Of a DNA stretch of 64,000 nucleotides, positions 747 through 21,778 are shown piece after piece. Within the stretch, counting starts at the first letter, position 1, and each line of letters begins with the position of its first letter. Source of the stretch: an uncultured delta proteobacterium (GTDB lineage: Bacteria > Desulfobacterota > Binatia > UBA9968); assembly GCA_963737905.1 (NCBI GenBank), contig CAVTUQ010000005.1:114742-178741 (forward strand). Direction: 5' to 3'. A model generated the notes under the pieces. It had not been told where the DNA came from and ran no database searches. It was given only the letters and a program-made list of their open reading frames with translations. Position numbers and translations under genes: made by a program.

Positions 747-747
747 T

Positions 748-2612: not shown

Positions 2613-2836
2613 TTTTTGATGAGGGTTGACGTAGAGTTCAGTATTAGAATTATATCGCAACGCGATTCTACCCATTCTCCCCGGCTCAAACAACACCGGG
2701 TCAAAGTGTCTTTGGCGGCGATTGGTCATTCCAGAAGACAAAGACAGGCAAGGCTAGCAAACGCCGGAAATTTTCAACCATGATATAATGCCAACAGAAC
2801 TGCCCCTGCTTAAGGGCATAAAGATACCTGAAAAAA

Positions 2837-3668: not shown

Positions 3669-3711
3669 ATCCATTCTCCTTTTCTTGTTAGGGCCGTAGT
3701 TAAGTAAACCC

Positions 3712-3987
3712 CTAGCGTCGGTAATCGTCGTCTTCTTGACCTTGGATGTAGTTACCAATCAGCGCGCCTGCCCCCAGGCCAACCGCCCCGCCGATGGCTG
3801 CGCCGGCTCCGGGATGACCTTTGGCGCTGCCGATAGCTCCGCCAACGGCTGCGCCGCCGAGAGCGCCGATGCCTGCGCCTTTTTCCCGTGCGGTCAGGGG
3901 TCCGCCGGCACAGCCGGCAGCGGCCATGGCGGTCAGACCGATGGCAACGATCGAGGTCGAGAAGTTGAGTCTCTTTTTGTTGTTCAT
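3712..3987 (-). CDS. Glycine-zipper lipoprotein
   Basis: AGGAGA SD; lipobox AAGC; GAGIGALGGAAVGGAIG...GAAIGGAVGLGAGALIG. Confidence 0.85.
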   Translation of the reverse strand: MNNKKRLNFSTSIVAIGLTAMAAAGCAGGPLTAREKGAGIGALGGAAVGGAIGSAKGHPGAGAAIGGAVGLGAGALIGNYIQGQEDDDYRR

Positions 3988-4035
3988 GTTTTCTCCTTTC
4001 GTATTTTTTGAACGTTTCATTTGGATCGCGAGCAG

Positions 4036-4051
4036 AGCAACGCAAATGCCA
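4036..4051 (-). promoter_or_regulatory. Sigma54 (-24/-12) promoter
   Basis: Minus strand TGGCATTTGCGTTGCT, exact GG-N10-GC spacing, ~50 nt upstream of the 3987 start. Confidence 0.7.
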
Positions 4052-4190
4052 CCGCGCCGAAAGGGGCTAACTCACTGATCTTGCCCAGGTCACACTGGAA
4101 CCGGCTTAAAAACCGCTCAGTAAAAATTACCTGTCACAAGTGAAAATGTGAGGATTAAGTGGTGGGTTCCCTGGACTGACTTAGAATCCA

Positions 4191-4890: not shown

Positions 4891-5331
4891 ATGAAAATTT
4901 TTAAGAATTCGTTGATTACCATGCAAGCTACGCTTTTGTTCGTGGCTTTCCTTTGGATTCATTTGTTCGGGGTCGCGGCGGCGTTGGCGTCGGACAAGGA
5001 CCGGCCGGCGCACTTTCTTCCGGAAGAGAGGACGATAATTTACGAGTACTATCACCGAGGGTCGCCGTCGAAGGGTCTGCCGCCAGGATTGGCGAAGAAA
5101 GGCAAGCTGCCACCTGGGTTACAGAAACACTTGGACAAAAATGGGAAGCTCCCGCCAGGACTACAGAAACGGCTAGAGCCTCTTCCACGGGATCTGGAAG
5201 TGCGGCTACCGCGCTTACCCGATTATTGGGAAAGAGTCATTCTTCAGGAACATGTCGTTCTGATCGACCGCCGCACCCAGCGAATATTAGACATCATTGA
5301 GAACGTGATTGGGCTAGCGACGGGAAGTTAG
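4891..5331 (+). CDS. Exported PPGLAKK-repeat protein (RcnB/CigR-like)
   Basis: Three LPPGL(A/Q)K repeats, then an RcnB-like tail (PLPRDLEVRLP...VVLIDRRTQRILDII). Confidence 0.7.
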   Translation: MKIFKNSLITMQATLLFVAFLWIHLFGVAAALASDKDRPAHFLPEERTIIYEYYHRGSPSKGLPPGLAKKGKLPPGLQKHLDKNGKLPPGLQKRLEPLPRDLEVRLPRLPDYWERVILQEHVVLIDRRTQRILDIIENVIGLATGS

Positions 5332-5437
5332 ATATTCTACTTCCGAGGCAGCGGCTAACCTACCCGTGGTCTGTTTTTTTGTCCCACTCGGTGATCCTAG
5401 CGACACTGCACCAAGTCCAAAAGGGCGGACTGTTTCT

Positions 5438-6007
5438 TCATAGAGGCGCTCCGGCTTTTTTCAGCCCTTCACGGGCGCGCTCTGAAGTCATCGGCCCGAT
5501 GACGACATCGCGGATCGTGCCCTGGGCGTCAATGAAAAATGTCGCAGGCGGGCCGAAGATACGATAGGCCCGCTTGACCGTGCTATTCAGGTCCAAGGCG
5601 ATGGGAAAGACGAGTCCGGCTTCTATGGCATATTCCGTCACGGCGGCGCGAGTGTCTTCGACGGCAATGCCCAGCACCGCGTAACCGTCCTTGCTCGCCT
5701 TGGATGCGAGCCCGTTTATCAGCGGCATTTCCTCCCGGCAGGGATCGCACCAGCTTGCGAAGAAGTTCATCATCAGGGGTCTGCCGCGAAGCGTATCGAG
5801 CCCAATGGGTTTACCATCGAGAGTTCTCAACTCAAAACCGATGGCGGTGCTGCCAACGGTAGGTGCAGATTTTTGGCCGACTTGGGGGATACCTTGCGTC
5901 CAACCGGCGCTCGGATGCAGCGCAAGATCCATCGGAAAACATAACAACGCAAACCATCCGGCGATGGAGATCAAACGCTTCGTCATTTCCCGCACCGATG
6001 GCATCAT
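5438..6007 (-). CDS. TlpA/ResA-family thiol-disulfide oxidoreductase
   Basis: NFFASWCDPCREEMP; GPPATFFID; ATGA overlap with the upstream gene. Confidence 0.9.
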   Translation of the reverse strand: MMPSVREMTKRLISIAGWFALLCFPMDLALHPSAGWTQGIPQVGQKSAPTVGSTAIGFELRTLDGKPIGLDTLRGRPLMMNFFASWCDPCREEMPLINGLASKASKDGYAVLGIAVEDTRAAVTEYAIEAGLVFPIALDLNSTVKRAYRIFGPPATFFIDAQGTIRDVVIGPMTSERAREGLKKAGAPL

Positions 6008-7350
6008 TGTTTCTCTACTCTCGCGTTTTTTAGGACTACCCATGAGTCTTCTCCATCGGTTTCTGTCCAGGCGACATGGAGTTGATGATTGGAAAGCGCC
6101 AACGCCGGCCGGTTGGCATTACCTTTCGCCTGGCTGATTTGCTGGACCGGACTCCACGTCTTGCCGTCCGGAGCGAGACTGCGGACGAAAATCTGCGACT
6201 TGCTCGCTCCATCCAAGTTATCCCATGCAAAATAGACCCGACCGTCTTCGGCTACCGCCATCGTCGTGTGGAGTATCTCAGCGGCCGTGTTGGCATGAAT
6301 CAGTTGCCGCGGCGCGAAGCTTCGACCGCCGTCTTTCGAGACGGTGTAGTAAAGGCCGGCCTCGCTGACCGAACGGCCCAGGGTAAACCAAGTCACGTGG
6401 AGATAGCCACGGGCGTCCCGACCGATGGTGGGACCGGAGTGTGGACAAGACGGGACCTGCCAGCCATCGTCGCTGATCTCAACCGGCGCGCCGAAGGTCG
6501 CGCCGCCATCGGTTGATTGCCGCAAAACGTGGTTGCGAATTTGATTTTTGTCAACCTGGCGATCCACCATATATACGGTCTTGCCGGCATCGGCGAAGGC
6601 GATGCCCAGCCGGCAGCATTCGCACAACCCTTCGCCTACCTTGTAGCTTGCCGTCAGGCGTTGGCCCGTGGCGCCGATGCGCATCAAATAAAGCGAGCGA
6701 GGAATCGGGTTGTCGACTCGGCGATCGATCCAAGCCACCAACAACGTATTATCCGGCGCAACTTCGACGATCGGAAAGCGCGCTGTGTCTTTGATTTCGT
6801 TGAGAGTCTCGGCTGGCGTGAAGCCGCCCTTTCCGTCTTCCATTGCGAAACGAATATTGGCGCGTGTCTTGTCGCCTTTTTCGTTGGGGATCGACCACAC
6901 CACATAAGCTTTGTTGTCGGGTCCGAAAGCGACCCTGGGCCCGCCTTCCTCTCCCTCGATCGCTTCCAAGAGGCCGTTGATTTGTCTGGGACGCGACCAA
7001 GTCTTGCCGTTATCGGCGGAAGAAGCCAGCAAAGCCATGCGCATCGGTGAGGCAGGCCTTTTCATGCGGGAGTCGTGCTGATGAGCGGGCGATAGCTTGG
7101 CTTGAGGCTGCGGCCGGTCGTCGTCTTCCGTCCAGACGGCGAACAATCGGCCGTCGGGCGCATACCGCAGGAAAGGCGTCGATGGATTCTGCTCGTTTTT
7201 CCCGAGCCGTTGCTCCGGTCCGAAGCTGCTTTCGATGGGTTGACGAGCATTGCCCGGCACGACGAGATCCGAGCCGCAGCCAAAGAGCATCAGACTGAAT
7301 ATAAGCGGACCTGCAATAATGGCAAGAATTCGGGTGAATTGTGTGTGCAT
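6004..7350 (-). CDS. BNR/Asp-box (sialidase-like) beta-propeller lipoprotein with CECC and CPHSGP motifs
   Basis: Asp-boxes SADNGKTW, STDGGATF, SKDGGRSF; GLCECCR; SCPHSGP; lipobox LFGC. Confidence 0.8.
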   Translation of the reverse strand: MHTQFTRILAIIAGPLIFSLMLFGCGSDLVVPGNARQPIESSFGPEQRLGKNEQNPSTPFLRYAPDGRLFAVWTEDDDRPQPQAKLSPAHQHDSRMKRPASPMRMALLASSADNGKTWSRPRQINGLLEAIEGEEGGPRVAFGPDNKAYVVWSIPNEKGDKTRANIRFAMEDGKGGFTPAETLNEIKDTARFPIVEVAPDNTLLVAWIDRRVDNPIPRSLYLMRIGATGQRLTASYKVGEGLCECCRLGIAFADAGKTVYMVDRQVDKNQIRNHVLRQSTDGGATFGAPVEISDDGWQVPSCPHSGPTIGRDARGYLHVTWFTLGRSVSEAGLYYTVSKDGGRSFAPRQLIHANTAAEILHTTMAVAEDGRVYFAWDNLDGASKSQIFVRSLAPDGKTWSPVQQISQAKGNANRPALALSNHQLHVAWTETDGEDSWVVLKNARVEKQ

Positions 7351-7377
7351 GATTAGCCTCCTAGTTTCGGCGAATTG

Positions 7378-7794
7378 TCACTTGGTTGTGAAAGTGACTT
7401 TGTCCGTAGCGGCGAGCTCCGTCTTATGATCCTCTGTGGCGACCCTTAGTTCAAGCGTATGTTGACCCGGTTTGATCCCATTTAAGGTCCCTTTCTCGGT
7501 TTGGAACATGCCCATCATCTCCCCGTCGACATAGGCATGCACATGCTCGCCCCGTTTACCTTTAGTGAGCTTGAATTCAAGCGGTACCTTATCGCCCGTG
7601 ATCATTTGGCCAGCTTTAGGTGAGATGATCTTTACGCTGGCACCTTCCGCCGGCTGGAGGGTGGATTTATCCGGCATTTTATCGGCGTGCTTCATCGGCA
7701 TATCCATGCCTTTCATGTGGTCTTGAGCCACTGTTGCGATGGGAGTGGAAAAAATCCATGCCGTCGCGACGATTGTAATAAGTGAGTTTTTCAT
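7378..7794 (-). CDS. Periplasmic His/Met-rich protein (HVHAYVDG Ig-like domain, DUF4399/DUF6130-like)
   Basis: Signal peptide; DHMKGMDMPMKH linker; domain 67/93 identical by manual count to the C-terminus of the upstream CopD. Confidence 0.7.
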   Translation of the reverse strand: MKNSLITIVATAWIFSTPIATVAQDHMKGMDMPMKHADKMPDKSTLQPAEGASVKIISPKAGQMITGDKVPLEFKLTKGKRGEHVHAYVDGEMMGMFQTEKGTLNGIKPGQHTLELRVATEDHKTELAATDKVTFTTK

Positions 7795-7811
7795 TGTGTC
7801 TCCTCTTCTTT

Positions 7812-9065
7812 TTATTTGACTATGAATTCAACGCGGTCTCGTGCATCCAATTCGGTTTGATGATCTTCGGTAACCACCCGAAGCTCCAAGATATGAGACC
7901 CCGGTCCAATACCATTCAAGGTTCCTTGCTTCCCTGTGAACATGCCCATTAACTCGCCGTCGATGTAGGCGTGAACGTGATAGCCACGTTTGCCCTTGGT
8001 TAATTTGAAACGTAACGGGACTCTGTCCCCCGTAAAAACTTGCTCCGCTTTGGGAGAAATGATCTCAACACCGGCGCCTTCCGCGGGTTTTAGTAACGGG
8101 GTGCTAGGCGCGGCGCTGGATGATGCGTTCGCGAGGGCGTTCTGATGTACGGCATGAACGCCGGGTGGAAGCACGGTGAGCAGCCCAGTTACGAAAAAAA
8201 CCAGCAAGGCGAGGAAGCTTTCCGCGCCGATCCGCCTCAAAGCTCTGGGCGCCAGGGAAAGGTCATTGACATTTCCACGGGCGGCTCGAAGGAGCGCGGG
8301 ACCTGTGGCAAGAAAGTTGAGCGCGCCGAATCCGAGCATCGTGATGAATAGGACCAGCTTGAGTAAGAGCACTCGACCGTAGTCAGTGCCGAACAGCGTC
8401 CGTAGATTGCCGACCTGAATCCAACTCTGGTAGAGACCGGTAAGAACAAGAACTGCGACGCTGCCAAGGGCGAGCCGGGAAAAACGACGGATCATCTCTG
8501 CCGTCCAGGACAAAGGAAGAGTCATTTTTTTAATGCCACGATGGAGAATCCAGAAAAGCGCCAACAGGCCGCCGCCCCAAAGCCCTGTGGCAATCAGATG
8601 GGCGGCATCGGCCGCCACGACGACCATCGTATCCTCCTTCACAGCGACGGCATGACTAGTAAAGCTGCGGCCTGCTACGAGCGGGAGAGCAAGAAAGAAA
8701 ACGCAGCGTATTGCTTTTACGCTCGCCGCCTTTCTCGCGAACCAGAATAGGATAACCACCAAGGCGGCGCCGTAGACTTCCCGTAAGAGCCAGACTTTGC
8801 CGCTTTGAGTCATGAAGAGGTAGCGAGAAAGAACGTCCAGGGACGGTACAGCACCCCGTTGGAGCTTTGCGCCTTGTATCACTAGGGAGACCATGGCGAT
8901 TATTAGGAAAGCGGCGGTCATGTACGCGCCTGAGAACGTCAGCGTTTGTCTCAGTTCTTTGGGTTCTCCGCCCGGCAGCAGAAAGCCCGCTGTGACGAGA
9001 ACGCCGAGCAGAAACCCGAGGACGGCGTAGCCCATCCCTGAGACGATTGCTTCTAACGAGAGCAT
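7812..9065 (-). CDS. copD: CopD-family membrane protein fused to a C-terminal His-containing soluble domain
   Basis: SHA...AHLIATGLWGGGL...RFSRLA...TGLYQSW...TDYGRVLLLKL CopD signature. Confidence 0.85.
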   Translation of the reverse strand: MLSLEAIVSGMGYAVLGFLLGVLVTAGFLLPGGEPKELRQTLTFSGAYMTAAFLIIAMVSLVIQGAKLQRGAVPSLDVLSRYLFMTQSGKVWLLREVYGAALVVILFWFARKAASVKAIRCVFFLALPLVAGRSFTSHAVAVKEDTMVVVAADAAHLIATGLWGGGLLALFWILHRGIKKMTLPLSWTAEMIRRFSRLALGSVAVLVLTGLYQSWIQVGNLRTLFGTDYGRVLLLKLVLFITMLGFGALNFLATGPALLRAARGNVNDLSLAPRALRRIGAESFLALLVFFVTGLLTVLPPGVHAVHQNALANASSSAAPSTPLLKPAEGAGVEIISPKAEQVFTGDRVPLRFKLTKGKRGYHVHAYIDGELMGMFTGKQGTLNGIGPGSHILELRVVTEDHQTELDARDRVEFIVK

Positions 9066-9071
9066 GAGCCG

Positions 9072-9452
9072 TTACTTCCCCACCGTTCCCACCGTAAACT
9101 GCAGCAGGCCTTCAGTTACGTGAGTGTCCACCGAAAGAACCTGCCACTCGATGGTGTAAGTTCCGGGACTCACCGGTTTGAGGTCGATGGCTAGAGTGTC
9201 TTCAGCCAATTGACGCAGCTTTCCTTGGCTGACCACTTCACCGTTCGCTCCCTTGACTGCGATCTGGCTAAACGCGATCTCGACACCTTCAGTGAATTGA
9301 ATGCGCACCTCCCGCGGCGGCTCTTTGACCTTGGCGCCGTTGTTTGGGATGGAGACCGCCGGATAAGCATGCGCCCATGCAAGCCCTTCCCTGTCTTGTA
9401 GTGAAAGGATTAAGAGCGCCGAGCTAAGGGCGATTAAAAACCTGGAATACAT
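9072..9452 (-). CDS. copC: CopC-family periplasmic metal chaperone
   Basis: Mature N-terminus HAYP; W-x-V-L-S-V-D-T-H; no Met-rich loop. Confidence 0.9.
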   Translation of the reverse strand: MYSRFLIALSSALLILSLQDREGLAWAHAYPAVSIPNNGAKVKEPPREVRIQFTEGVEIAFSQIAVKGANGEVVSQGKLRQLAEDTLAIDLKPVSPGTYTIEWQVLSVDTHVTEGLLQFTVGTVGK

Positions 9453-10248
9453 AAGTTGACTCGTAACTGGTTTTGTCCTTTTGGCCGTCGGGGCGCGGGC
9501 TCTCTTGGTCGATCTTTACCCGCGCTAGATAAAAATCCGCGGGGCCGATAGCAAAGGTGACTCTTCCTTTCTCGTCCGTCGTTTGATCTTGCACCGATGC
9601 AGAACCGTCCATGCGACGAACCAGGGTGACCACCTGCCCCCTCGTGGGTTTTCCCTTTTGGCGCAGCTCCAAAGTCATGCTGCCGCCGGAGAAAACCGCG
9701 AGAGGGTTATTGACGGGGATGAATTCCACAGCGTCTTCGCCGGCGATAAGCCGGTCAAAACCCTTTAGGTTCTTTGCCGCCGCAATGGTCGGTACTTTAA
9801 ACGCTCCGAATGCCGTCTTGGCGATGCGCACCGTTACGAGCTTCGGCCCATCTCCCTGCTGCAGACTTCGCGCCTGACGAGCCACGGCCTGGTAAAGGCC
9901 TTCATCGTTTGGGACATACACCGCGAGATAAAAACCCTTGGGCCCTTTCGGGCCGACCTTTTCTTCGTCCTCCCCCAGATCGACGATGCGGTCCGTAAGC
10001 GTATTTTGTTTTCCCTTCGCGTCGACGACTGCCAGCGCAGTGTACTTGCCGTCCCACTTTCCTGCGATACGGTAGCTCTTGTGTTCATTTGAGTGATTGC
10101 CTTGGACGAGAGCGATGTTTGCTACCTGTCCTTTTTCAATGATCGTCGGAGTCACCTCGACCCAGCCGTCGTGGCTTAAGGCTGAGAATGGATGGAGAAA
10201 AAGCAAGGCGACAAAGAGTGATAAACTTGCTTTACTCATTCGGATCAT
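9424..10248 (-). CDS. DUF4198-family periplasmic protein
   Basis: Mature N-terminus HDGW; GNHSNEH; AKT...EFIPVNNP...TDEKGRVTF pattern. Confidence 0.75.
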   Translation of the reverse strand: MIRMSKASLSLFVALLFLHPFSALSHDGWVEVTPTIIEKGQVANIALVQGNHSNEHKSYRIAGKWDGKYTALAVVDAKGKQNTLTDRIVDLGEDEEKVGPKGPKGFYLAVYVPNDEGLYQAVARQARSLQQGDGPKLVTVRIAKTAFGAFKVPTIAAAKNLKGFDRLIAGEDAVEFIPVNNPLAVFSGGSMTLELRQKGKPTRGQVVTLVRRMDGSASVQDQTTDEKGRVTFAIGPADFYLARVKIDQESPRPDGQKDKTSYESTYVFQVFNRP

Positions 10249-10338
10249 TTATTTCTCCTCTAAAAATAGCCGTCCCTTTAGCGCGAGGATGGTTTCGTTT
10301 GGCGACTCCTGAGACTCAAAACCAACAAGTCGCTCCTG

Positions 10339-10722
10339 TTATTTTTTCGCTATGGCGAAGGTAAAATCCCCCTCTGTTACATGCGTGTCTTTCGCTAATG
10401 CCTTCCAGTAAACGTGATAGGTACCGGACGCCAAGGGTTGAAGATCGACTTCAAGTACACTGGCGTCCGGACCGTTTACGCGGCTGTTACCTTTATCGAC
10501 TTGCTGTTTCATCGAATTGAAGACTGTGATGCTGCTGAAGGCCGGTTCCAGCTCCCCGTCAAACCAGATCGTCACTTTTGGCGGCGCAACAGGGATCGTC
10601 CAGCCAACTCTCGGGTCCGAACGCACCGGAAAAGCGTGCGCCTGGGCGAGGGTTTGAAACGCGGTTATGCCGAGTATCAAAGCCAATGACAAGCTCAGAA
10701 CCATTTTTTCTAGCGGTCTCAT
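10339..10722 (-). CDS. copC: CopC-family periplasmic metal chaperone (second copy)
   Basis: HAFPVRSDP; WKALAKDTHVTEG; ATGA overlap with the upstream barrel gene. Confidence 0.9.
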   Translation of the reverse strand: MRPLEKMVLSLSLALILGITAFQTLAQAHAFPVRSDPRVGWTIPVAPPKVTIWFDGELEPAFSSITVFNSMKQQVDKGNSRVNGPDASVLEVDLQPLASGTYHVYWKALAKDTHVTEGDFTFAIAKK

Positions 10723-11663
10723 CTCGGTATCGGCGTCGGGCCGATCACTCCCCATGGCGTCCACGTGAAAATATTGGGCCAGAGATCGTCGATGAAAAGA
10801 TGGATTAAAGCATTTACGCCGGCGTTTTTGCCTGCAACGTTGTTCAACGGTAGCTTCGCTTCCAAGCCAAGTTCGACGTATCTTCCCACCCATATTAGAC
10901 CCGGATTAGCGAAAGCAGCGGTCTGGCCGCGATCAGGTTTGGAGGCGTTCGTAGTGAAGTTAAATTCAACGACCGGAAACATGCGGTCAAACGGCGCACC
11001 GAGCCCAACATCCTTAACAAATGATTGCAAATAGGGAACGCTGTAGATCACGGCGACTCCATAATCGAGCGTGGTTGGATTGTGCTCCTTATCATCGCCG
11101 CTGCCGGTTGTCCGGTTAGCTGGATTATTGACGTTAAACTGGCCGTTGATCGAGAAAGGCTTCAGGTAGGCCAAGGAGTCAGGCAAGTCGCCGAAACCTT
11201 TCCCAAAAAAAAGGGCCGGAGAAATGGTAGTGACTCTTTCCGCCACCCTTTGGGGGCCGACCCCACCAGGCTCTACCCCTAAGCCGACACTAAAGATACC
11301 CTCATGCTCAGGACTTGTCAGAGAAACATATTTGAAGCCGAATTCAGGGTTGCCTGCTCCCGAGGTACTAGATTCGCCTGCCTCTCTTGGATTGAAAAAC
11401 AGATAGTCCCATCCGACGGTTACGGCGAAGTCGGGCGTCAGACGCTTCGAGAACTCAAAACCGACACTGCTCTCTCTTCCTTCTTTGTTGTTGCTTCCCC
11501 ATTCGACTTTCAGGAGATCCAATTCGTCGGACGCGAAAGGGTCATCTACGACCAGGGTTGTCGGAATAAACCGCTTTCCTATGACCCCGTGACCGTACGT
11601 CGATCTGACGGCGAAGAATAAACTCACCAGTAAAGACAAACTTATGACGACACATTTTTTCAT
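10719..11663 (-). CDS. Putative outer-membrane beta-barrel metal-uptake protein
   Basis: Signal peptide; mature N-terminus HGVIGKRFIPTTLVVDDPF; alternating amphipathic strands; GGGAGG SD. Confidence 0.65.
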   Translation of the reverse strand: MKKCVVISLSLLVSLFFAVRSTYGHGVIGKRFIPTTLVVDDPFASDELDLLKVEWGSNNKEGRESSVGFEFSKRLTPDFAVTVGWDYLFFNPREAGESSTSGAGNPEFGFKYVSLTSPEHEGIFSVGLGVEPGGVGPQRVAERVTTISPALFFGKGFGDLPDSLAYLKPFSINGQFNVNNPANRTTGSGDDKEHNPTTLDYGVAVIYSVPYLQSFVKDVGLGAPFDRMFPVVEFNFTTNASKPDRGQTAAFANPGLIWVGRYVELGLEAKLPLNNVAGKNAGVNALIHLFIDDLWPNIFTWTPWGVIGPTPIPR

Positions 11664-11741
11664 CGAGTCCTCCCATAGAACGAGTCATCAGAGCTGGGTT
11701 GTTACCCGGCCCTAACCAATATTAGGAGAGTGATTCGATAA

Positions 11742-12125
11742 CTAGTAGAGAAGTGTGTCTTTAGGAGGCGCTCTCTGGAAAAAAAGGAAGGCAGTGAATA
11801 AATCGACCCACTGTCTTGTCTGTGGGCGAAATGATTCTAATTGCGCTTCAACGAAAGGCAGTTCAACCAGTGCGGCCTGGCCTAGATGGCAGCTCTGGGC
11901 GACGGATTGAATTGCGCAGTCGGTTTGAGCGGGCTTGGTTGGGTTCTGACCATGTTCGTGGCTTTCTGGATCAACTTGAGTTTCATCGTGTGCGTGGCCA
12001 AGCCCCTCAAAAAAATGATGCACCCGATGTGGCTGGGAAACACTCAGGAAGAGCAAAAACAGCGACCCTATGGCAAGGGCAGTGCAACGACGCAACGCCG
12101 AAACTCTTTCAGGCGATTTCTTCAT
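11742..12125 (-). CDS. DUF2946-like His-rich leader protein with C-terminal RAPP motif
   Basis: TM/signal segment, HRVHH...HAHD...HEH, C-x8-C-H, FQRAPP six codons before the stop. Confidence 0.7.
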   Translation of the reverse strand: MKKSPERVSALRRCTALAIGSLFLLFLSVSQPHRVHHFFEGLGHAHDETQVDPESHEHGQNPTKPAQTDCAIQSVAQSCHLGQAALVELPFVEAQLESFRPQTRQWVDLFTAFLFFQRAPPKDTLLY

Positions 12126-12162
12126 CGGTTGCTTAGGCTTTTATCCGAATTCGTTCGCCGGA

Positions 12163-13005
12163 TCAACCTGAAAAGCGCGGCGATCGTGTACGTTGTTGCC
12201 GGCGAAACCAGAACACGATCTCAAGAACAAAGAATAGAGCCGCGGCGGTCAATACGATGGTAGCGGCCGAAGATATGTCCAGATAGAAACTCAAATACAT
12301 TCCGGTTGCACCGCATACGATCCCGATGAGAGGAGAAAGAATCAACAGCCGTTGAAATCGATTGGTTAGGTAACGGGCAATGACCGGAGGGATCACCATG
12401 GCGGCGGCGACCAAGGTGACGCCGAGAATTTGGGTCGAGGCCAATACCGTGACCGCAAGCAGGGTAATGAAAATCAGATCGATTTTGCCGGTGGAGACAC
12501 CGTAGGCAGAAGCAACTTCCGGATCGAAGGTGGCGAACAGTAGTTGCCGGCGCATGATAATAAGCGCACAGAAAACGATTAGAGATATGACGATGACGAT
12601 CCAGAGATCCTTTTGAGTGATGCCGAGGATGTTGCCGAAGAGCGCGACCTCGATGTTGCGGGTAAAGCTCCGATAGGTCGAGACGATGGCTACGCCGAGG
12701 GCAAAACTGGAAGTCGTAACGACACCGATGGCGGCATCGGCCCCGACCCAGCGCCGGTGGCTGATCAGGTGGATGAGAAAACCGGCAAATAGCGCCCACA
12801 GCCCGGCGCCAACAAAGAAATTGACGTTCATCACGTAGCTCAGGACAGCGCCGCCGAAGATGGCGTGGGAGAGGCCATGGCCTATGTAGCTCATCCGGCG
12901 CAGAACGACGTAGACGCCGATAAAGCCGCAAAGCGCGCCGACGACGACGGCGGCTAGAAAGCCGTTGCGAAAAAATTCGTATTCAAATGGGACTAACAAG
13001 GACAT
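12163..13005 (-). CDS. Metal ABC transporter permease (ZnuB/MntB family)
   Basis: GVYVVLRRMSYIGHGLSHA; DAAIG; LFGNILG; TFDPEVA. Confidence 0.92.
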   Translation of the reverse strand: MSLLVPFEYEFFRNGFLAAVVVGALCGFIGVYVVLRRMSYIGHGLSHAIFGGAVLSYVMNVNFFVGAGLWALFAGFLIHLISHRRWVGADAAIGVVTTSSFALGVAIVSTYRSFTRNIEVALFGNILGITQKDLWIVIVISLIVFCALIIMRRQLLFATFDPEVASAYGVSTGKIDLIFITLLAVTVLASTQILGVTLVAAAMVIPPVIARYLTNRFQRLLILSPLIGIVCGATGMYLSFYLDISSAATIVLTAAALFFVLEIVFWFRRQQRTRSPRFSG

Positions 13006-13007
13006 GA

Positions 13008-13089
13008 GTTCAAATCGTTCAAAATGTTCAAGCCGTTCAATCCGTGTTTGGACGTTTTGAACTTTTTGAACGGCTGGAACGATTTGAAC
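13008..13089. repeat. Inverted pair of 9-bp-period arrays
   Basis: GTTCAA at 13008, 13017, 13026, 13035; TTGAAC-like at 13048, 13057, 13066, 13075, 13084. Confidence 0.85.
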
Positions 13090-13099
13090 GCGTCTTCAT

Positions 13100-13963
13100 T
13101 TATGTGTGCGGCGCGTGGGGTCGCTCGCCGATCATGACCATGCCGTCGTGGTGGAAGACGACCATTTCGCCTCGGTAGGTTTCCTTGAGGACGGAGGCGT
13201 TGAGTACTTCTTGAGGACGTCCTTCGGCAATCAACCGGCGATTGAGGCAGGCAACCCACGGCAGATGCGCTGCCACCCAGTTGAGATCGTGGGCGGTAAT
13301 AATGATGGCCACTCCTTGATGGTTGATCTCGTGAAGAAAATGGATCACGTCGTCCCGCGAACGAATATCGAGTCCTGCGGTTGGCTCATCGAGCAGGATC
13401 AATTCCGGATCGCCCAGCAGCGCGCGCCCAAGAAAAACCGCTTGTTGTTGGCCGCCGGAAAGCTCGCGGATATGACGATCACCGAGACCGCTCAAGTTTA
13501 AGCGTGCTATGATGTCCTGGAGCTTGCGCCGCTCGTCGTCGCGGATGCCGCGAAACCAGCGGTTCTTGCCAAAAAATCCCATGGAGATGACTTCCTCCAC
13601 GGTGATCGGGAAATTCCAGTCGATGGTTTCAAGCTGGGGCACGTAACCGATACGTTCCAACAAAGATCGTTGCGGGTCTTTGCCTCGCAGCAATACCTTG
13701 CCCTGTTGCACCGGTACCGTGCCGAGAATAGTGCGCAACAACGTCGTTTTCCCTCCGCCGTTGGGCCCGACGATAGCCAGGAACTGACCGGGCCAGATCT
13801 TGAGGGAAACATCTTGGAGCGCGGGGGTGGGTCCATAACTGTTACTGACGTTGCCAAGCTCGACGAGCGGTACACCGGAGAGGCCGGAGACCGGCGGTTC
13901 CTCAATTCCGTGGGGATGGAGACTGCCGCGGGCGTTCCCATGTGGATGATCGTGTGTGTTCAT
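13100..13963 (-). CDS. Metal ABC transporter ATPase (ZnuC/MntA family), His-rich N-terminus
   Basis: GPNGGGKT, LSGGQQQ, LLDEPT, AHDL. Confidence 0.92.
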   Translation of the reverse strand: MNTHDHPHGNARGSLHPHGIEEPPVSGLSGVPLVELGNVSNSYGPTPALQDVSLKIWPGQFLAIVGPNGGGKTTLLRTILGTVPVQQGKVLLRGKDPQRSLLERIGYVPQLETIDWNFPITVEEVISMGFFGKNRWFRGIRDDERRKLQDIIARLNLSGLGDRHIRELSGGQQQAVFLGRALLGDPELILLDEPTAGLDIRSRDDVIHFLHEINHQGVAIIITAHDLNWVAAHLPWVACLNRRLIAEGRPQEVLNASVLKETYRGEMVVFHHDGMVMIGERPHAPHT

Positions 13964-13982
13964 ATGTAGTTAAAGGTCTAGT

Positions 13983-14141
13983 CTAGCAGGTTGCTGAAAC
14001 ACTCTGATTGCAGGCTGCTCAAAAGGACCTCAGATGCGAGGCGCATGAAGGATGGATGAGCGGAGGCGTACTCTTCTGTACGTTGACGCGAAATCGGTCG
14101 AGTGCAACAAAGCATATGGGTCTTTTTCAGCAGCCTGCTAG
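13983..14141. mobile_element. Non-autonomous MITE-like element with CTAG flanks
   Basis: CTAG-CAGGTTGCTGAAA ... TTTTTCAGCAGCCTG-CTAG; extra internal end copy CAGGCTGCTCAAAA at 14011; no transposase. Confidence 0.7.
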
Positions 14142-15155
14142 TCTCTTCTCCGGTAGTCGGCATAAGCCCCCGCCACCGGCGCGGGATCGACCTGCCTCAA
14201 CGCCTCCGTTGAGCCTCCCAACGCTTCGACCATGATTGTCATATTGTCAACCATCATGCCAGGATAGGAATGCTGGGGATCGCCGGGTTTGCCGGGCAGC
14301 TCATCGTCCCTGAGCTTGTCAATATAGCGGCTTTTTGCTTCCCGGGCGATCTGTTCCAACACCGGGCTGGGAAAAACTTCCGACCCAAACACCGCCGGGA
14401 CCTTTTCCTTTCTAATTTGCTCGATGAGCCGCACCACCTCGCGGGGGCTCGGATCGGTAAAATCGGACGGTTGGACGGCGCCGATCACTTGGAAACCATA
14501 GCGGCGCGCGAAATAGGGCCAGGAATCGTGATAGGTGAGCAAGCGACGATTGTTTTGCGGTATTGTTTGAACCGCTTCCTTGATCGCTTGATCCAGGGCT
14601 TCGAGTTTTTTGAGAAATTGCGCGGTGTTTTGTTCGTAGACTGCTTTGTTCTTGGGGTCGAGACGAATCAGCTCGTCGCGGACCAACGTCGCATAACGCA
14701 TCACGTATTCGGGATTGAGCCACAAGTGAGGATTGGGATGACCCTGTTCCTTGGGAAAGCTAAAGTCATAGATATATTCGGTTTCTTTAACGGTCTTGTT
14801 GCCGAGAGAATAGATGGAGCGCTCCTGTTTTGAGATTGGCTTGGGCGAGATTCACGGTGGGTGTTTCGAGATCGAGGCCATTGATAATGATCAAATCAGC
14901 ACGGGAGAGAAGCTTGCTATCCGACGGAATGGGCTCGAAAGTATGCGAATTGATCCCTTCAGGGATGATGCCGGTCAGCTGAATTCTGTCACCGCCGATG
15001 TTTTCCACGATGCTCGTGATCGGTGCGACGGTGGTGACGACGCTGAGTTTCTTCTCCGCCGTGGCGTCCGGCTTTTGTTCCTGGCGTCCACAGGCAGCAA
15101 GAAGAAATGCGGCGGCCAAAATAACCGACCGTGTTGTGACGGTTGCAAATTTCAT
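14138..15155 (-). CDS. Metal ABC substrate-binding lipoprotein (ZnuA/MntC family), split by a +1 frameshift near 14820
   Basis: LAAC lipobox, NSHTFEP, then in the shifted frame YDFSFPKEQGHPNPHLW, TYHDSW, FGSE; removing one C joins the two ORFs. Confidence 0.85.
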
Positions 15156-15338
15156 TTGGTAAAAGGCGCGTGCTTTTTCTTTTCGTCCAGACGGAAGTTG
15201 CCCAACGTCACGAAGGCCTGAGGGCTAGCCTATTGGCAAAAATCTAATTCCTGGGTAGGGAGGAGAGGAAGTCGCTCTTTCCGTACTCGGGTTACCAACG
15301 AATTGGCGGCCTAACAAGTTTCAGTCTGGGCGACCCCG

Positions 15339-15377
15339 ACCTTATCAGGAGTAATATGAATTGACAAATCGTGCTAC
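15339..15377 (-). promoter_or_regulatory. Sigma70-type promoter overlapped by a candidate NikR operator
   Basis: Minus strand TTGTCA-17-TAAGGT; operator GTAGCAC-N13-ATATTAC (15351-15377) straddles the -35. Confidence 0.6.
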
Positions 15378-15493
15378 ACGCGGCTGCGGCGCTTCCTTAT
15401 GTAAAGTTATGTAAAGTAAAGATTTATCCAAGAATGAGCTTAATCTAGGGGAATGCTCCGGTTTAGCAGCGCAGCGTCTGCCGCGACAGATGA

Positions 15494-16609
15494 TTACAGG
15501 GCAAGACCGCGTCTTTGTCGCGTCGTCTGCACGTGAGCCACTGACGCATCGACAACGTAAGGCACAGCAGATTCGGGATACGGCGCAACACTGCTAACGT
15601 TGATTTCGCAAAGAGCATAGGTGTCTTCGCCGTTGTTTCCCTTCGGACCGAGCAGGAAATCGCAATCCCAGAGAATCGGAAGACTTTCGGTCTCAATTTC
15701 CAACAATCGCTGCACTGCCGGCACCCACTCGTGCTCGAGCTTGCGTTTAAGGGTCTGGAATTCCGGCATGGACGGCGGATGATACAAACGGGGCCCGGGT
15801 GGGGGCGCTTCCGTTGCAGGTGCGCCTAGGCGCGCGGGAAACAGTGCATTGATAGCCTGATGTCCAAATCCGACTACCCTGTCATCCACGAGATAACACC
15901 GAATCATGCCCTCCGGAAGCCGCTTTTGATATTCTTGATCGATCATCAGGCCGTTGGAGGAAAAGTAAGGCTCACAGCGGCGATAGAATTCGCCCAGCGT
16001 GATTTGCTCTTCGTTGCAACCACGCTGGGCGTGTCGGACACAAACGATGGTTTCAGGCTCCGGCAGCACAGCGAGGCTGCGGCCTTCGCTGTTCGCAAAG
16101 GCCTCTACCGGCAGCTGGACTTTCCACACACCGTTTCCGCCATTGCCGCGATTCTGCTTGAGTACTCGCGCCTTGCCAGCTGCTAGTCGCAAAGGGAGCT
16201 CCTGAACCATTTGAGCCATACTGCAGTAAAGATGCGTGTCGCAGCCCCATCCAATGTCACGCGTGCGATACAGAACTTCTTTTGTACCCAACTTCAAAAT
16301 GACGTCGGGGTGCGTGCTCACAAAAACGCCAGTGGCTGCGACATCACGAAGCATAGAATCGAGAACGGACCTGTCCCTTCCGCCTTCGATCGGATTGACC
16401 CATACCAGCACGCCGTCAACCCGCATGAGCTGTTCTCGAACGTCCTCGCAAAAGTCATCGTGATATATCGCAGGCTCGACGTAAATGCGCTTGGCGGCGA
16501 AGGCCCCGAACAAATCTGAGAATCGGCTATTCTCGGCGGTTGTATTCCTTCTCGCCTCACGATTGCCAGAGCAAAGAATTGCCACTCGCGCGTAACTATC
16601 TTGTTCCAT
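15494..16609 (-). CDS. Cj0069-family (ATP-grasp-like) protein
   Basis: VLVWVNP, HPDVILKLGTKEVL, VLKQNRGNGGNGVW, WDCDF, CEINVSSV. Confidence 0.75.
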   Translation of the reverse strand: MEQDSYARVAILCSGNREARRNTTAENSRFSDLFGAFAAKRIYVEPAIYHDDFCEDVREQLMRVDGVLVWVNPIEGGRDRSVLDSMLRDVAATGVFVSTHPDVILKLGTKEVLYRTRDIGWGCDTHLYCSMAQMVQELPLRLAAGKARVLKQNRGNGGNGVWKVQLPVEAFANSEGRSLAVLPEPETIVCVRHAQRGCNEEQITLGEFYRRCEPYFSSNGLMIDQEYQKRLPEGMIRCYLVDDRVVGFGHQAINALFPARLGAPATEAPPPGPRLYHPPSMPEFQTLKRKLEHEWVPAVQRLLEIETESLPILWDCDFLLGPKGNNGEDTYALCEINVSSVAPYPESAVPYVVDASVAHVQTTRQRRGLAL

Positions 16610-16762
16610 CGAAAATTCTATTTTTCTGGAATCGCTGTCTCGTCTCCGTAACCACAAAACAGAGTCGCCAGGGAAAGCGGATAAAAGTTAATTGGCTTAT
16701 TTCCTGTGACGCGTCAGAAAGTAGAGTAAGTGCCAGACAAAAATATTGTCGAAACTTTTTCA

Positions 16763-17734
16763 CTAGCTTTTTCTTCTGAAGTACTCATAAAGGTCGTTGA
16801 AAACCGCGCACCCTCGCTCCAAGCGGGCCTCGTCATCTTTGTGAGTCATTGCGATGCCGGCGATGAGCCTCTCGATCCCAATCGTGTCCGGCCGCCCGAA
16901 CTTCGAATCCTTGAGATCGATGTCGTGAACAATCTCAGCGATCGGGATAAGCGCCGAGTCATCGAGACATACACGCTGAATCAAGACCTCCAGTGTGCAG
17001 CGATCACCTTCATGCGTGAACTCTGCCTCGAACATGTCGAAGCGTAGCTCACCGGGCAGAGGCTTGTAGCCTTTCGGAGGAACAAACTTGAAGCGAGCAT
17101 CCGGATCGATAAAACGACGAATAAGCCAGGCGCTTGCCATGCGGTCGACGTAAATGCCCTTACGGGTAACCCAGGTTTTACCGAGGAAGTCTTCCCGCCG
17201 GAACCTGCGAGCATTGTCGGATCCAAACATCGAATTCTTACCAGTCATGCGTGCCTCAACCCCGGAAACCAATCCCTCTGCTACCTCCCGTCCGGGAGCG
17301 CCAAAAAAGTCTATGGCGACAACCTCAGCGAGGCGCCGTTTAAGTCGGGTGAGATCGATCTCCAGTTGTGTACTTGGTGTTTCCTCCGTTTGTCTCGACA
17401 AATGACTCGCCGCAAGACGGCGAGTCTCCTCAGCTATCTTGTCGTACTCAGCGCCGCGGGCCGCTTGGAACAAAGTTTCCACTTGCTCGTCGGAAAGACC
17501 CTCGACGAAGCGCGCCTCACATAAGGACGCTTCTCCGCGACCTTCAACAATTTCCCGCAACACCCACTGAAAATCCTCCTGCGTCTCGTCGTTCTTGGGC
17601 AGGACATACACCGAGTTCTTAATGGCAACAGCGCCAATACGCTGAAGCCGTCGCCCAATCTTTACCCGGAAGTAATCTGGCTTCGGCGGGATTTGATGAA
17701 TAAGGAGTAACCATCGTCCTTCTGACTCCTGCAT
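16763..17734 (-). CDS. chrB: Chromate resistance regulator ChrB
   Basis: WLLLIHQIPPKP..RV; IDFFGAPG; WVTR..IYVDRMASAWLIRRFIDPDA; FTHEGDRCT. Confidence 0.92.
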   Translation of the reverse strand: MQESEGRWLLLIHQIPPKPDYFRVKIGRRLQRIGAVAIKNSVYVLPKNDETQEDFQWVLREIVEGRGEASLCEARFVEGLSDEQVETLFQAARGAEYDKIAEETRRLAASHLSRQTEETPSTQLEIDLTRLKRRLAEVVAIDFFGAPGREVAEGLVSGVEARMTGKNSMFGSDNARRFRREDFLGKTWVTRKGIYVDRMASAWLIRRFIDPDARFKFVPPKGYKPLPGELRFDMFEAEFTHEGDRCTLEVLIQRVCLDDSALIPIAEIVHDIDLKDSKFGRPDTIGIERLIAGIAMTHKDDEARLERGCAVFNDLYEYFRRKS

Positions 17735-17830
17735 ACGCCCTTCCTTTGACTTAAAAGTACAACTGTTATATTCAAGATTCAACTGCGCTATTTAAAACTA
17801 CTTGTGAACGCCCTGTGAAGGGAACCACAG

Positions 17831-19046
17831 ATGAAATCTCCACGTCCTGAAATGACCGAAATCATGGCGCCAGCCGCGATTGGTCTATGGTCACTCGTTG
17901 GCTATTTCCTGAAGCTCGGCACGATCGGCTTCGGCGGTCCGGCGGCGCTGGTCGGTTTCATGCACAGAGACCTGGTCGAGCAGCGCCGTTGGATCACTGA
18001 GGATACTTACAAACTATCCCTAGCGCTCGCTCAGATCATGCCGGGACCACTCGCAGCACAAACGGCCATCGCCATTGGTTACTTCGAGGGCGGGGTTCTC
18101 GGTGCGACCCTCGTCGGTCTCGGTTTCATTGTTCCTTCTTTTCTGATGGTGGTCGCCATCTCGCTAGCTTATGTCGCCTACGGCGGGTTGTGGTGGATGC
18201 AAGCACTTTTCTACACCATCGGCGCAACGGTTATCGCAATCATCGCGATTGCTGCGTACAAGCTGGCGCGCGGCACCAACAAGCGTAATCCGCTGCTCTG
18301 GGGCATCTTTGTTTGCCTCACGATCGTAACCGTATGGTCGCAGAGCGAGTTGGCAGAGTTCTTCATTCCTGCCGGACTCATCGTCCTGGTTTTTCAGGCT
18401 TGGCCAGGTTGGAACCCCGGCATCCTAATGACACTCAGTGCCGCGGTCCTCGGTGTGGCCGTTTGGTTGCTGGAGGTGTGGCTCGCGCAGGCCGGTACAG
18501 GAGGCAACACTGGCAACATATTGACTGAGATCCTCTTATTCTTTACCAAGGCTGGCGCGTTTGTGTTCGGCAGCGGCCTGGCAATCATTCCGTTCTTGCA
18601 CCAGGAGTTGTACAGCATTCGGCTGGCTGAATGAGCATCAGTTTTTGGACGCCGTCGCCGTCGCGATGATCACTCCCGGGCCCGTGGTCATAACCGTCGC
18701 TCTAATCGGGTTTCTTGTTGCCGGCCTGGCGGGAGCGGTTATGGCATCAATTGGTATCTTCTTGCCGGTATATGTATTTACGATCGTGCCAGCACCGTGG
18801 TTCAAACGCCACCGCGACAATCCCCAGTTTAAAGCGTTCGTTGACGGCGCTACCGCAGCTGCGACCGGCGCAATTACAGGCGCAGTGATTGTCTTAGGCG
18901 CACGAGCAATCACCGATTTGCTCACTGCAATTATCGCGCTCGTCAGCTTGGGTGTTTTATGGCGCTATAAGATTTCGGAACCGATTATCGTCACCATCTC
19001 CGGACTGGTCGGATTGATACTCTGGCCCCTGGTCCGTGGAGGGTGA
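17831..19046 (+). CDS. chrA: Chromate efflux transporter ChrA (long chain), frameshifted near 18610-18620
   Basis: GFGGPAAL, PGPLAAQ, VFGSGLAI, then FLDAVAVAMITPGP in another frame. Confidence 0.88.
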
Positions 19047-19752: not shown

Positions 19753-19814
19753 ATGAAATCCGCCTTTCTTTGCTGTTTAGAGATTATCAAACATTGTATT
19801 GCCTGTCATTCCCC

Positions 19815-21666: not shown

Positions 21667-21778
21667 GGTGGTTGCTCTTTCTCAAATATACCATGGGTAG
21701 TTCGTTCATTTATTAACCGATGCAGCCACATTGCAGGGTTTCACAGGATCGGCTCCCAATTGAAATTTTAGCGCGCCG

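Follow-up and report, generated by a model that had tools for sequence, protein, structure and literature searches.

The leader ORF

The DNA analyzed in this work (hereafter the window) is a stretch of 64,000 nucleotides (nt) from an uncultured delta proteobacterium (Desulfobacterota; Binatia; UBA9968; assembly GCA_963737905.1, contig CAVTUQ010000005.1, positions 114,742 to 178,741). Its minus strand carries a small open reading frame (ORF) with an ATG start, 127 codons and a TAG stop (11742..12125), called here the leader ORF, between the genes of an ATP-binding cassette (ABC) importer and a gene encoding a 314-residue outer-membrane beta-barrel protein (10719..11663), the gene that it would control. 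All the features of the leader and of its messenger RNA (mRNA) given below are on this strand. The leader ORF most likely represents a new branch of the metal-sensing translational switches of the CruR/CutF type.

The encoded peptide begins with a basic/charged N-terminus and a hydrophobic segment, which are followed by SQPHRVHHFFE and by a stretch rich in His, Asp and Glu. It comprises: (i) a hydrophobic signal-anchor helix predicted at codons 10-29 (12039..12098; predicted local distance difference test (pLDDT) >90 with AlphaFold2 on 114 family sequences), (ii) right after this anchor, the invariant His motif PHRVHH (codons 32-37, 12015..12032), (iii) a His-rich loop, (iv) an invariant Cys (codon 70, 11916..11918) located 47 residues ahead of R118, (v) FQ followed by RAPP (residues 118-121, codons AGA GCG CCU CCU, 11763..11774), and (vi) a six-codon tail, KDTLLY, before TAG. 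His clusters are found at residues 33-37 (HRVHH) and as HAHDE and HEH, besides a C70-x8-C79-H80 arrangement. A preliminary description of this DNA had already reported the 127-residue ORF, its His clusters and the C-x8-C-H arrangement, all of which are present where it placed them, and had considered FQRAPP as terminal, an assignment that the six following codons correct. It had also located exactly the sequence CCUCCUA at the Pro codons of RAPP (11762..11768), which is complementary to a Shine-Dalgarno (SD) sequence, the sequence UGGGAGG (11675-11669) and the ATG of the next gene (11663). Apart from helix 10-29, which is confident, the AlphaFold2 model shows a short helix (71-81) and a low-confidence unfolded chain (predicted template-modelling score 0.31). 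An anchor helix followed by a disordered chain suits a nascent-chain sensor rather than a folded protein.

A family with a fixed distance between Cys and RAPP

A word-indexed search retrieved 59 homologues of the leader ORF, mostly of 127 residues. In an alignment of 32 of them, Q31, P32, H33, R34, V35, H36, H37, C70, R118, A119 and P120 are invariant and P121 is kept in at least 90% of the sequences. A 29-member profile, compared with 1.84 billion representatives, matched 219 proteins at E ≤ 0.001. The family counts given below were made on 114 aligned representatives, i.e. the window ORF and 113 of the 150 listed profile matches; matches that were split or stopped before the C-terminal region of the profile, as well as a few sequences obtained earlier, were left out, so that these counts are conditional on near full-length matches. 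The preliminary description had made its proposal depend on the conservation of RAPP in orthologues, and the motif is indeed conserved, with its first three residues invariant in the alignment (32/32) and the whole motif present in 111 of the 114 representatives.

Among these 111 sequences, the distance between the Cys and the Arg of RAPP is nearly constant (47 residues in 88, 48 in 22 and 46 in one), and the distance between PHRVHH and the Cys is free to vary from 26 to 121 residues. The complete PHRVHH motif is found in 103 of the 111, and P32, H33, V35, H36 and H37 are invariant across all 114 sequences. The second Cys of C-x8-C is present in only 38 of the 111; sensing by C-x8-C, as previously suggested, is therefore not a feature of the family, in which C70 alone is invariant. 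The tail that follows RAPP has two residues in 86 of the 111 representatives, and the six-residue tail of the window is a minority form (n = 6). Judged on its sequence, the leader ORF is a conserved gene of a small, distinct family, PHRVHH...Cys-47/48-RAPP.

A Pfam scan of the window ORF gave nothing at E ≤ 0.01. At a permissive threshold, its sole match was DUF2946 (PF11162; E = 0.099, 13.8 bits for a gathering cut-off of 23.7), with an alignment that stops at the last profile position, on RAPP. This search had been suggested by the preliminary description, which had called the ORF DUF2946-type; the profile similarity ending at RAPP agrees with it and the score does not reach the level of a Pfam assignment. 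The same pattern recurs in 10 of 17 distant members from related loci, with weak DUF2946 matches ending at RAPP (E 0.002-0.23, all below 23.7 bits), and DUF2946 is the top match in most of the distant members. Furthermore, 17 of the 114 representatives reach E ≤ 0.01 against DUF2946 (best 1.4e-5). The family thus appears to be a divergent relative of DUF2946 that Pfam does not capture.

CutF-like proteins have been delimited by four filters: fewer than 150 residues, Pro-Pro within the last 15 residues, an N-terminal signal and a same-strand downstream gene less than 1000 nt away (PMC9973294). The window ORF has 127 residues, P120/P121 located 7-8 residues from its end, a hydrophobic N-terminus and, 78 nt downstream, the barrel gene on the same strand. 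These features support the earlier view that the ORF encodes a CruR/CutF-type RAPP peptide, probably exported, with His and Cys residues.

Predicted RNA structure masking the start of the barrel gene

In the predicted fold of 11800-11640, the 17 nt that directly follow TAG (UUAUCGAAUCACUCUCC, 11725..11741) form the 5′ arm of a helix, P2, whose 3′ arm (GGGAGGACUCGAUGA, 11660..11674) contains the SD and the start codon of the barrel gene. This post-stop arm is thus both an anti-start and an anti-SD strand, and in the ensemble it pairs with the SD/AUG at probabilities of 0.77-0.999. An inner hairpin of the leader, P3 (11687..11716), lies between the two arms. An outer helix, P1, found both in the minimum free energy structure and by RNAalifold, joins GACACA (11754..11759), in tail codons 123-124 and within the footprint of a ribosome stalled at RAPP, to UGUGUC (11649..11654), in codons 4-5 of the barrel gene. 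The 78-nt intergenic region of the window is predicted to be almost fully base-paired. A permissive Rfam search over 5000-18000 gave no match, and a scan of the window found no intrinsic terminator between the leader and the barrel gene; two terminator-like matches inside the ORF do not exceed what shuffled sequences give.

The comparison was extended to related loci (57 collected first and 32 added from genomes of the same class; labelled L001 etc.). Fourteen distinct leaders located ahead of the same barrel gene share this nested rod in separately computed folds, and RNAalifold recovers P1 on its own; in L023 and L024, both bases of A-U pairs are changed to give G-C. In these 14 leaders, P1 is 90.3% paired with five compensatory pairs, and P3 is 79% paired with four pairs changed on both sides. 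For the nested structure as a whole, 83.8% of the cells are paired, compared to 41-51% when the partners are slid, and 11 pairs are changed on both sides, compared to three to nine when slid. Counted from a structure derived from one of the 14 sequences, the rod has values that 0-1 of 500 shuffles reach on four of five measures; on the fifth, the number of further pair types, 441 of 500 shuffles reach the observed value. Both arms of P1 are coding, and pairing is kept while the tail changes from K-D-T-L to I-D-A-L and the N-terminus of the barrel protein from KKCVV to KRRAA.

It had been noticed previously that a second segment after the stop can pair over the start codon of the next gene. This pairing now appears as the dominant predicted structure, conserved in the 14 leaders, and the general idea that RNA gates the SD and start of the next gene gains from it, since the RNA predicted to sequester both starts where the ORF ends. 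Overall, folding predicts that the post-stop arm masks the SD and AUG of the barrel gene in the window mRNA.

Pairing of the Pro codons and codon choice

The preliminary description had assigned the anti-SD role to the Pro codons themselves. CCUCCUA is complementary to UGGGAGG at seven of seven positions, with one G-U pair, although four of these seven pairs follow from any Pro-Pro (CCNCCN) opposite any GGAGG. In the ensemble of the window, this helix has a pair probability of 0.0006-0.0007, because the post-stop arm wins. Its paired fraction over the 14 leaders, 88.8%, is attained by 132 of 500 shuffles, and there is no covariation; wobble-base changes (CCG CCG in L031, and changes in L023 and L024) break it while the rod stays. 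It is also mutually exclusive with P1, as the two helices would cross. As far as the folding shows, the Pro-codon helix is not the operative structure in this window; what stands of the earlier claim is the complementarity and a codon bias found throughout the family.

This bias was revealed by ranking the native Ala-Pro-Pro triplet among its 64 synonymous versions by duplex energy against the downstream SD region, in 61 distinct leaders grouped into 35 lineages (<70% leader identity; one lineage, L061, is from the unpublished genome G012). The native codons fall in the best quarter for SD pairing in 24 of the 35 lineages (binomial p = 7e-8), in the best tenth in 12 and in the worst quarter in only three. 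The lineage of the window is at rank fraction 0.18, its triplet having 10 better variants among the 64. Furthermore, folding predicts that the SD pairs mainly with the Ala-Pro-Pro codons (0.85-1.0) in L013, L016, L051, L053, the second leader of L012 and the first leader of L002. Of 42 leaders, 28 use CCU for the first Pro, and CCT accounts for only 60 of the 346 Pro codons of 14 window genes; this preference could have another reason, an effect on arrest itself through the choice of transfer RNA (tRNA). As a tendency of the family, the sequence comparison indicates that stall codons are chosen towards SD-complementary synonyms.

Modelled occupancy of the leader by ribosomes

Toeprints of other RAPP peptides (PMC10987492) and of CruR (PMC12992588) place the third codon of RAPP-like motifs in the peptidyl (P) site. 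By analogy, a ribosome stalled on the leader ORF is expected to carry Pro120 (11768-11766) at its P site, the aminoacyl (A) site being taken by Pro121. With a modelled footprint of -12..+15 around the P-site codon, the cost of opening the binding site of the downstream gene (-14..+16; median 17.8 kcal/mol in 16 barrel-type leaders) falls by a median of 2.8 kcal/mol for a ribosome at RAPP and 3.0 at the last sense codon, compared to -0.2 for a control 30 nt upstream. The corresponding gains in the window are 2.2, 3.7 and 0.7 kcal/mol. With 90 nt of upstream context, the gain for the SD/AUG of the window is 1.7 kcal/mol at RAPP and 2.4 at the stop. The cost for -14..+3 is about 11.6 kcal/mol, and covering all the upstream RNA brings it down to 8.7 when the covered part ends at RAPP and to 7.7 when it ends at the stop, values close to the 6.6 obtained as median over 24 starts of the window. 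In these models, a ribosome on the 3′ end of the ORF would thus specifically loosen the binding site of the barrel gene.

Gene order, promoter-like element and distribution

Upstream of the leader ORF, the minus strand carries genes for a ZnuA-like protein, an ABC ATPase and an ABC-3 permease (12163..15155; Pfam and ORF list), and the stop of the permease gene lies 37 nt before the leader ORF. The order ZnuA-like gene, ABC ATPase, ABC-3 permease, leader and downstream module is conserved in many related loci. Among 64 RAPP-ORF matches with at least 400 nt of upstream DNA (not de-duplicated, one from G012), the nearest same-strand gene within 500 nt upstream encodes the permease in 30, with gaps to the leader of 40-124 nt in 27 of them and of 296 nt in three; in others it is CopD or a protein of the 138-residue type (n = 10), TlpA (n = 5) or the ABC ATPase (n = 2). 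The modules located downstream vary with the locus and include the barrel, DUF4198, a 445-residue lipoprotein, the 138-residue protein and TonB receptors.

A promoter-like element, TTGATC-N15-GATAAA (12140..12166, minus strand), immediately precedes the leader ORF. Its function is inferred; its -10-like hexamer ends 14 nt before the leader ATG, its -35 hexamer includes the TGA stop of the permease gene, and no SD is found between the element and this ATG. The element reads TTGACG-N15-TATAAT with a TG extension in L023, L024 and L028. The family comparison covered 35 distinct upstream regions; in 26 of them, the best-scoring -35/-10 pair stops 12-17 nt ahead of the ATG (shuffles: mean 3.5, maximum 9), and the mean best promoter score is 8.2 compared to 7.06 +/- 0.14 in shuffles. 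A sigma-70 scan picks up the site in L028 and in L031, where a terminator-like hairpin lies upstream of it. The same scan found no promoter in the window, because the -10-like hexamer lacks its final T, and the promoter reading in the window therefore rests on the comparison of the family. The leader probably heads its own transcription unit with a very short 5′ leader and possible read-through from the importer genes. The position within an operon given by the preliminary description is thus right for the gene order, which is conserved across loci, and the conserved promoter-like element suggests that the leader is rather the first gene of its own unit.

An inverted repeat, ATCCG-N11-CGGAT (12146-12164, minus strand), is located between the -35 and -10-like boxes, with ATCGG...CCGAT in other loci, and could be an operator or a small hairpin. 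As a candidate covarying element it was rejected, because its complementarity in 14 sequences (84%) is attained by 57 of 500 shuffles.

The genome of the window has one copy of the family. Matches were found in 13 of 41 sampled relatives (a tally that counts the unpublished genome G012) and, within the class, in 16 of 301 sampled genomes, almost all of one family of genomes: 14 of 25 in this main family, one of three in a second one and none found in 18 other families sampled. The named records among the matches are metagenome-assembled genomes of Candidatus Binatia and of "delta proteobacterium". Several PHRVHH-RAPP leaders can occur in one cluster, each ahead of a different module, as in L012, L054 and L002. 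In L002, three leaders are found in 10 kb (759-1124, 3711-4106 and 6676-7260), followed by DUF4198-CopC-CopD, by the 445-residue lipoprotein with TlpA and by a 704-residue TonB-receptor-like gene, respectively.

Proposed mechanism and alternative explanations

The ORF, its conservation, the ruler-like spacing between Cys and RAPP, the conserved predicted RNA structure and the synteny are observed. From them we infer, with a probability of about 0.55, a cis-acting metal-sensing ribosome-arrest leader of the CruR/CutF kind that belongs to the separate PHRVHH...Cys-47/48-RAPP branch. The peptide would be inserted co-translationally by means of its N-terminal anchor and the ribosome would pause at RAPP when the first of the two Pro codons occupies the P site and the other the A site. 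At this pause, the invariant Cys, 47 residues back, would be approximately where the chain exits the tunnel and translocon, and PHRVHH would be at the outer face of the membrane. A metal, copper being the likeliest, would be bound by the Cys, PHRVHH and the His-rich loop and would alter the duration of arrest, by either prolonging or relieving it. On free mRNA, the binding site of the barrel-CopC-DUF4198-CopC-CopD block would be locked in the nested rod, in which barrel codons 4-5 are bound by the tail codons, and the SD and AUG by the 17 nt that follow the stop. By remaining on the 3′ end of the ORF, a ribosome would strip the 5′ strand of the rod and make the opening of the binding site cheaper, and the synthesis of the barrel block would then track how long ribosomes dwell on the last part of the leader.

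Several observations weigh against this proposal. RAPP by itself does not guarantee arrest, and the window ORF is below the Pfam cut-off for DUF2946 and devoid of CXXC. The fold energy of the window as a single sequence is unexceptional (z = -1.46; 15 of 200 shuffles fold as well), so that the rod is supported by conservation and not by energy; the related sequences compared are not independent, so that the shuffle statistics overstate this support, and folding with more of the surrounding sequence makes P1 weak in the window. The opening cost of the barrel start (9.2 kcal/mol) ranks 19th of 24 among window genes, a high cost that is still not extreme. When 90 nt of upstream RNA are included, one footprint at RAPP shifts the cost of opening the SD/AUG by a median of only 0.5 kcal/mol in 43 leaders (range -3.6 to +4.6), and the anti-SD proper (CUCUCC) of the window is beyond the reach of a ribosome stalled at RAPP. 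It should also be emphasized that the footprint results vary with the amount of upstream RNA included, and that modelling does not decide between a stalled ribosome and a flow of ribosomes as the "on" state. The stalled ribosome is favored as "on" because stall codons serve as SD complement family-wide, because most tails have two codons and because CutF provides a precedent.

The reverse sign is a serious rival in the subgroup with six-codon tails, although for the family at large it is improbable. Only ribosomes that go past RAPP and reach the stop would then unwind the post-stop arm, and arrest would mean "off". In this subgroup, the masking strand starts at the stop codon, 21-43 nt past the P site of the stall, and is consequently outside the reach of the stalled ribosome but under a terminating one; the modelled gains in the window are indeed larger at the end of the ORF than at RAPP (2.4 versus 1.7 and 3.7 versus 2.2). 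Furthermore, most of the 14 leaders pair the last sense codon and the stop (UCAUAA) with the start region (AUGA); in the window, the last codon is UAC and a UUAU located right after TAG covers the AUG instead. However, RAPP is followed by only two codons in 86 of 111 representatives, where a ribosome would stall and terminate at nearly the same place, so that this mechanism cannot be general. The use of stall codons as SD complement throughout the family argues that occupancy of the stall site is "on", and in CutF stalling turns the downstream gene on (bioRxiv 10.1101/2025.02.05.636593).

Somewhat less probable still is the mechanism initially described for the window, in which CCUCCUA pairs with UGGGAGG on ribosome-free mRNA and stalling on RAPP frees the SD. 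The complementarity at all seven positions, the rank of the window lineage with the minority codon CCU, the bias in 24 of 35 lineages with CCU as first Pro codon in 28 of 42 leaders, and the role of these codons as main SD partner in other lineages are all in keeping with it. But its probability in the ensemble of the window, its crossing of P1 and the lack of covariation in the 14 leaders argue against it, the SD is still held by the post-stop arm when the Pro codons are covered, and the preference for CCU could serve arrest instead, via the choice of tRNA.

We consider equally unlikely a polarity mechanism like that of CruR, in which the arrested ribosome shields the nascent RNA and its release lets Rho or an attenuator hairpin terminate transcription before the barrel gene. 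This is how CruR, the RAPP prototype, acts, likewise ahead of metal-uptake genes (PMC9426467). The scan flagged as terminator-like a U-rich run that comes after the inner hairpin region in L028 (4429-4451), and L023 has the same arrangement; attenuation may contribute in this lineage. Nevertheless, the window has no terminator-like site between the ORF and the barrel gene, its 78-nt intergenic region, predicted almost fully paired, leaves little free RNA for Rho, and the conserved feature is SD/AUG pairing, which has no role in Rho loading.

Finally, the absence of any switch, the product being a small membrane-tethered His/Cys metal-binding chaperone or buffer and the RNA setting a fixed translation ratio, would account for the long His-rich loops of some members (PHRVHH and Cys can be as much as 121 residues apart), which resemble metal-storage/binding proteins, and for leaders that always adjoin metal-handling genes, but it is very improbable given the invariant RAPP, which is counter-selected in proteomes except in arrest peptides (PMC12992588), the rigid ruler of 47-48 residues beside a freely varying loop, the lack of a predicted folded domain and the presence of up to three copies in 10 kb, each before a different module (L002), a pattern of cis elements and not of one chaperone.

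The arrest-leader proposal can be widened, tentatively and with the odds against the whole being right in all its parts, to a reading in which one long metal-acquisition cluster is split into separately gated modules by an undescribed branch of arrest leaders. The modules would be: (i) barrel-CopC, (ii) DUF4198-CopC-CopD, (iii) the Met-rich 138-residue protein, (iv) the 445-residue lipoprotein with TlpA, and (v) TonB receptors. Each module could have, besides a near-leaderless promoter, a PHRVHH-Cys-RAPP leader of its own, as many as three leaders being found in 10 kb. The length of arrest would be set by a metal that bridges the His cluster, at the membrane face, and the Cys, kept exactly 47-48 residues from the stall site, before the chain has left the translocon. 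The strand that masks the next ribosome-binding site (RBS) would consist of the stall-site and tail codons themselves, and about 30 nt of RNA would be at once arrest motif, ribosome parking place and anti-RBS.

Neighboring genes and the putative metal

The barrel protein, which the preliminary description had already recognized as a barrel, is modelled by AlphaFold2 with 12 strands (pLDDT 73.8). Its best PDB matches are FapF barrels (template-modelling score 0.52-0.67), with other outer-membrane barrels also matched. It belongs to no Pfam family; it has 1917 homologues, with no Pfam domain on record among the 120 listed, and the atlas gives PF13557 as a lead. It is followed by a block encoding CopC, DUF4198, CopC and CopD (7812..10893, minus strand; Pfam and ORF list). 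The barrel stop and the probable start of the first CopC (M58 of the listed ORF, just ahead of a signal peptide) overlap as ATGA (10719-10722, minus strand), an arrangement that suggests translational coupling and would pass the control by the leader on to CopC.

CopD is followed by a Met-rich protein of 138 residues, a BNR-like lipoprotein and a TlpA-like redoxin. The 138-residue protein (7378-7794, minus strand) contains the Met-rich segment MKGMDMPMKH, shows weak similarity of the BiPBP_C type, and is homologous to the last ~90 residues of the CopD protein (7812-9065, minus strand); its gene has its own RAPP leader in L022, L025 and L053. SCO1/SenC and two Cox11/CtaG-like genes, which fit a theme of copper delivery, are found at the far end of the same strand (141-2741, minus strand). 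The gene content points to copper acquisition, in which we take CopC and CopD to have a role; the ZnuABC-like importer and the His-rich sensor may indicate zinc or nickel as alternative metals.

Control by NikR had previously been suggested to be superimposed on that by the leader. The nikR gene (24782-25225) is actually 12.7 kb away and heads a separate operon, and no operator-like inverted repeat was found, at the settings used, upstream of the ZnuA-like gene or of nikR; the suggestion has no support here. This operon (19144-25225, minus strand) encodes NikR, a TonB-dependent receptor, a second DUF4198 protein, ExbB, ExbD, TonB and a methyltransferase. Near leaders of the family, NikR is also found in L034 and, along with a TonB receptor, in L001. 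Between the NikR operon and the ZnuABC-leader cluster lie genes for a ChrB-like regulator and a chromate transporter (16763-19043), the latter split in two overlapping ORFs (17831-18634 and 18561-19043). The ZnuA-like gene is present as two ORFs of different frames (14787-15155 and 14138-14725, minus strand), whereas it is in one frame in related loci. The frame of its C-terminal part is open upstream through the junction (14726-14830), which indicates a single frameshift near 14790-14815, due to a sequencing error or to a pseudogene.

Comparison with known systems

The principle of such a switch is already in print, for CruR, for CutF and in a survey of 2025 that covers small secretory RAPP ORFs upstream of metal genes (PMC12992588). 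In CruR (Bp2923 of Bordetella pertussis), arrest at RAPP was shown in vitro (PMC12992588). Like the family described here, CruR is a small protein, exported as is predicted for this family, with RAPP a few residues before its C-terminus, a Cys sensor at a fixed distance from RAPP (45 residues in CruR and 47-48 here, equally rigid) and a location ahead of metal-uptake genes, CopC being among its known partners (PMC9426467, PMC12992588); the weak but consistent profile similarity that ends at RAPP adds to this likeness. CXXC, the hallmark of the CruR/DUF2946 family (PMC9426467), is absent from the family of the window, whose candidate sensors are PHRVHH and a single invariant Cys. The intergenic region of CruR is long and subject to Rho-dependent termination, whereas here it is 78 nt long, structured and predicted to mask the SD/AUG. 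Finally, DUF2946 genes, including CruR homologues, are stated to be always first in operons (PMC9426467), and in gene order the leader of the window comes after an ABC importer.

CutF of Rhodobacter capsulatus (PMC9973294) shares with the leader ORF a size below 150 residues, an export signal (predicted for the latter), a Pro-Pro within 15 residues of the C-terminus and a gene in the same orientation lying within 100 nt downstream. In CutF, stalling is proposed to melt a stem-loop that shields the downstream SD (PMC9973294; bioRxiv 10.1101/2025.02.05.636593), an arrangement that is only predicted here. His-only or mixed clusters and non-copper contexts have already been reported for CutF-like proteins (PMC9973294). 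Unlike the window ORF, whose motif is RAPP, CutF stalls on PPP with the involvement of elongation factor P (EF-P) and has CXXXC, and it controls a multicopper oxidase instead of an outer-membrane barrel with CopC/CopD. In addition, the masking strand of the window takes in coding codons of both genes, through P1. No match to HRVHH, CopC, CopD or DUF4198 occurs in two supplementary files of PMC9973294, the part of its supplement available.

Other RAPP/RGPP peptides, namely ApdA, ApdP, the RQH family and the small secretory RAPP ORFs located before TonB receptors, YcnI and PCu(A)C (PMC10987492, PMC12992588), also have a C-proximal RAPP near metal genes and an expected stall with the third codon of the motif in the P site. 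The surveys grouped these ORFs by motif and downstream annotation, and in their available parts neither the PHRVHH/Cys ruler nor the RNA rod is described; the terms "anti-SD", "Shine-Dalgarno" and "stem-loop" do not occur in PMC12992588. Literature searches gave, among the matches listed, only unrelated topics such as desaturases for HRVHH and, among the best matches listed for RAPP with anti-SD, nothing on arrest codons acting as anti-SD.

In the SecM-secA and MifM-yidC2 systems, a ribosome stalled on an upstream ORF opens a hairpin that hides the downstream RBS, and export events tune arrest. These systems monitor the export machinery, whereas the presumed input here is a metal and the outputs are metal-handling genes.

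Taken as a whole, the available parts of this literature hold no counterpart of four features that our sequence comparisons indicate: the PHRVHH/Cys-47 family, the helix shared by two coding regions, the statistics of codon choice and the modular layout with several leaders and near-leaderless promoters. Metal-sensing arrest leaders are a recent finding known from two proteobacterial examples, CruR and CutF, which appear opposite in sign. To these examples the present family would add: (i) a sensor chemistry without CXXC, (ii) a compact RNA structure whose compensatory changes span two coding regions, and (iii) statistical evidence that stall codons are chosen to pair with the SD of the next gene. 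Its strict ruler between Cys and stall makes metal sensing by a nascent chain at the exit of the translocon directly testable, and its layout hints that long uptake clusters can be regulated module by module at the level of translation. Overall, about 200 clusters of "hypothetical proteins" from soil bacteria, together with the adjoining barrel family, would thereby gain a testable role in the acquisition of copper or other metals.

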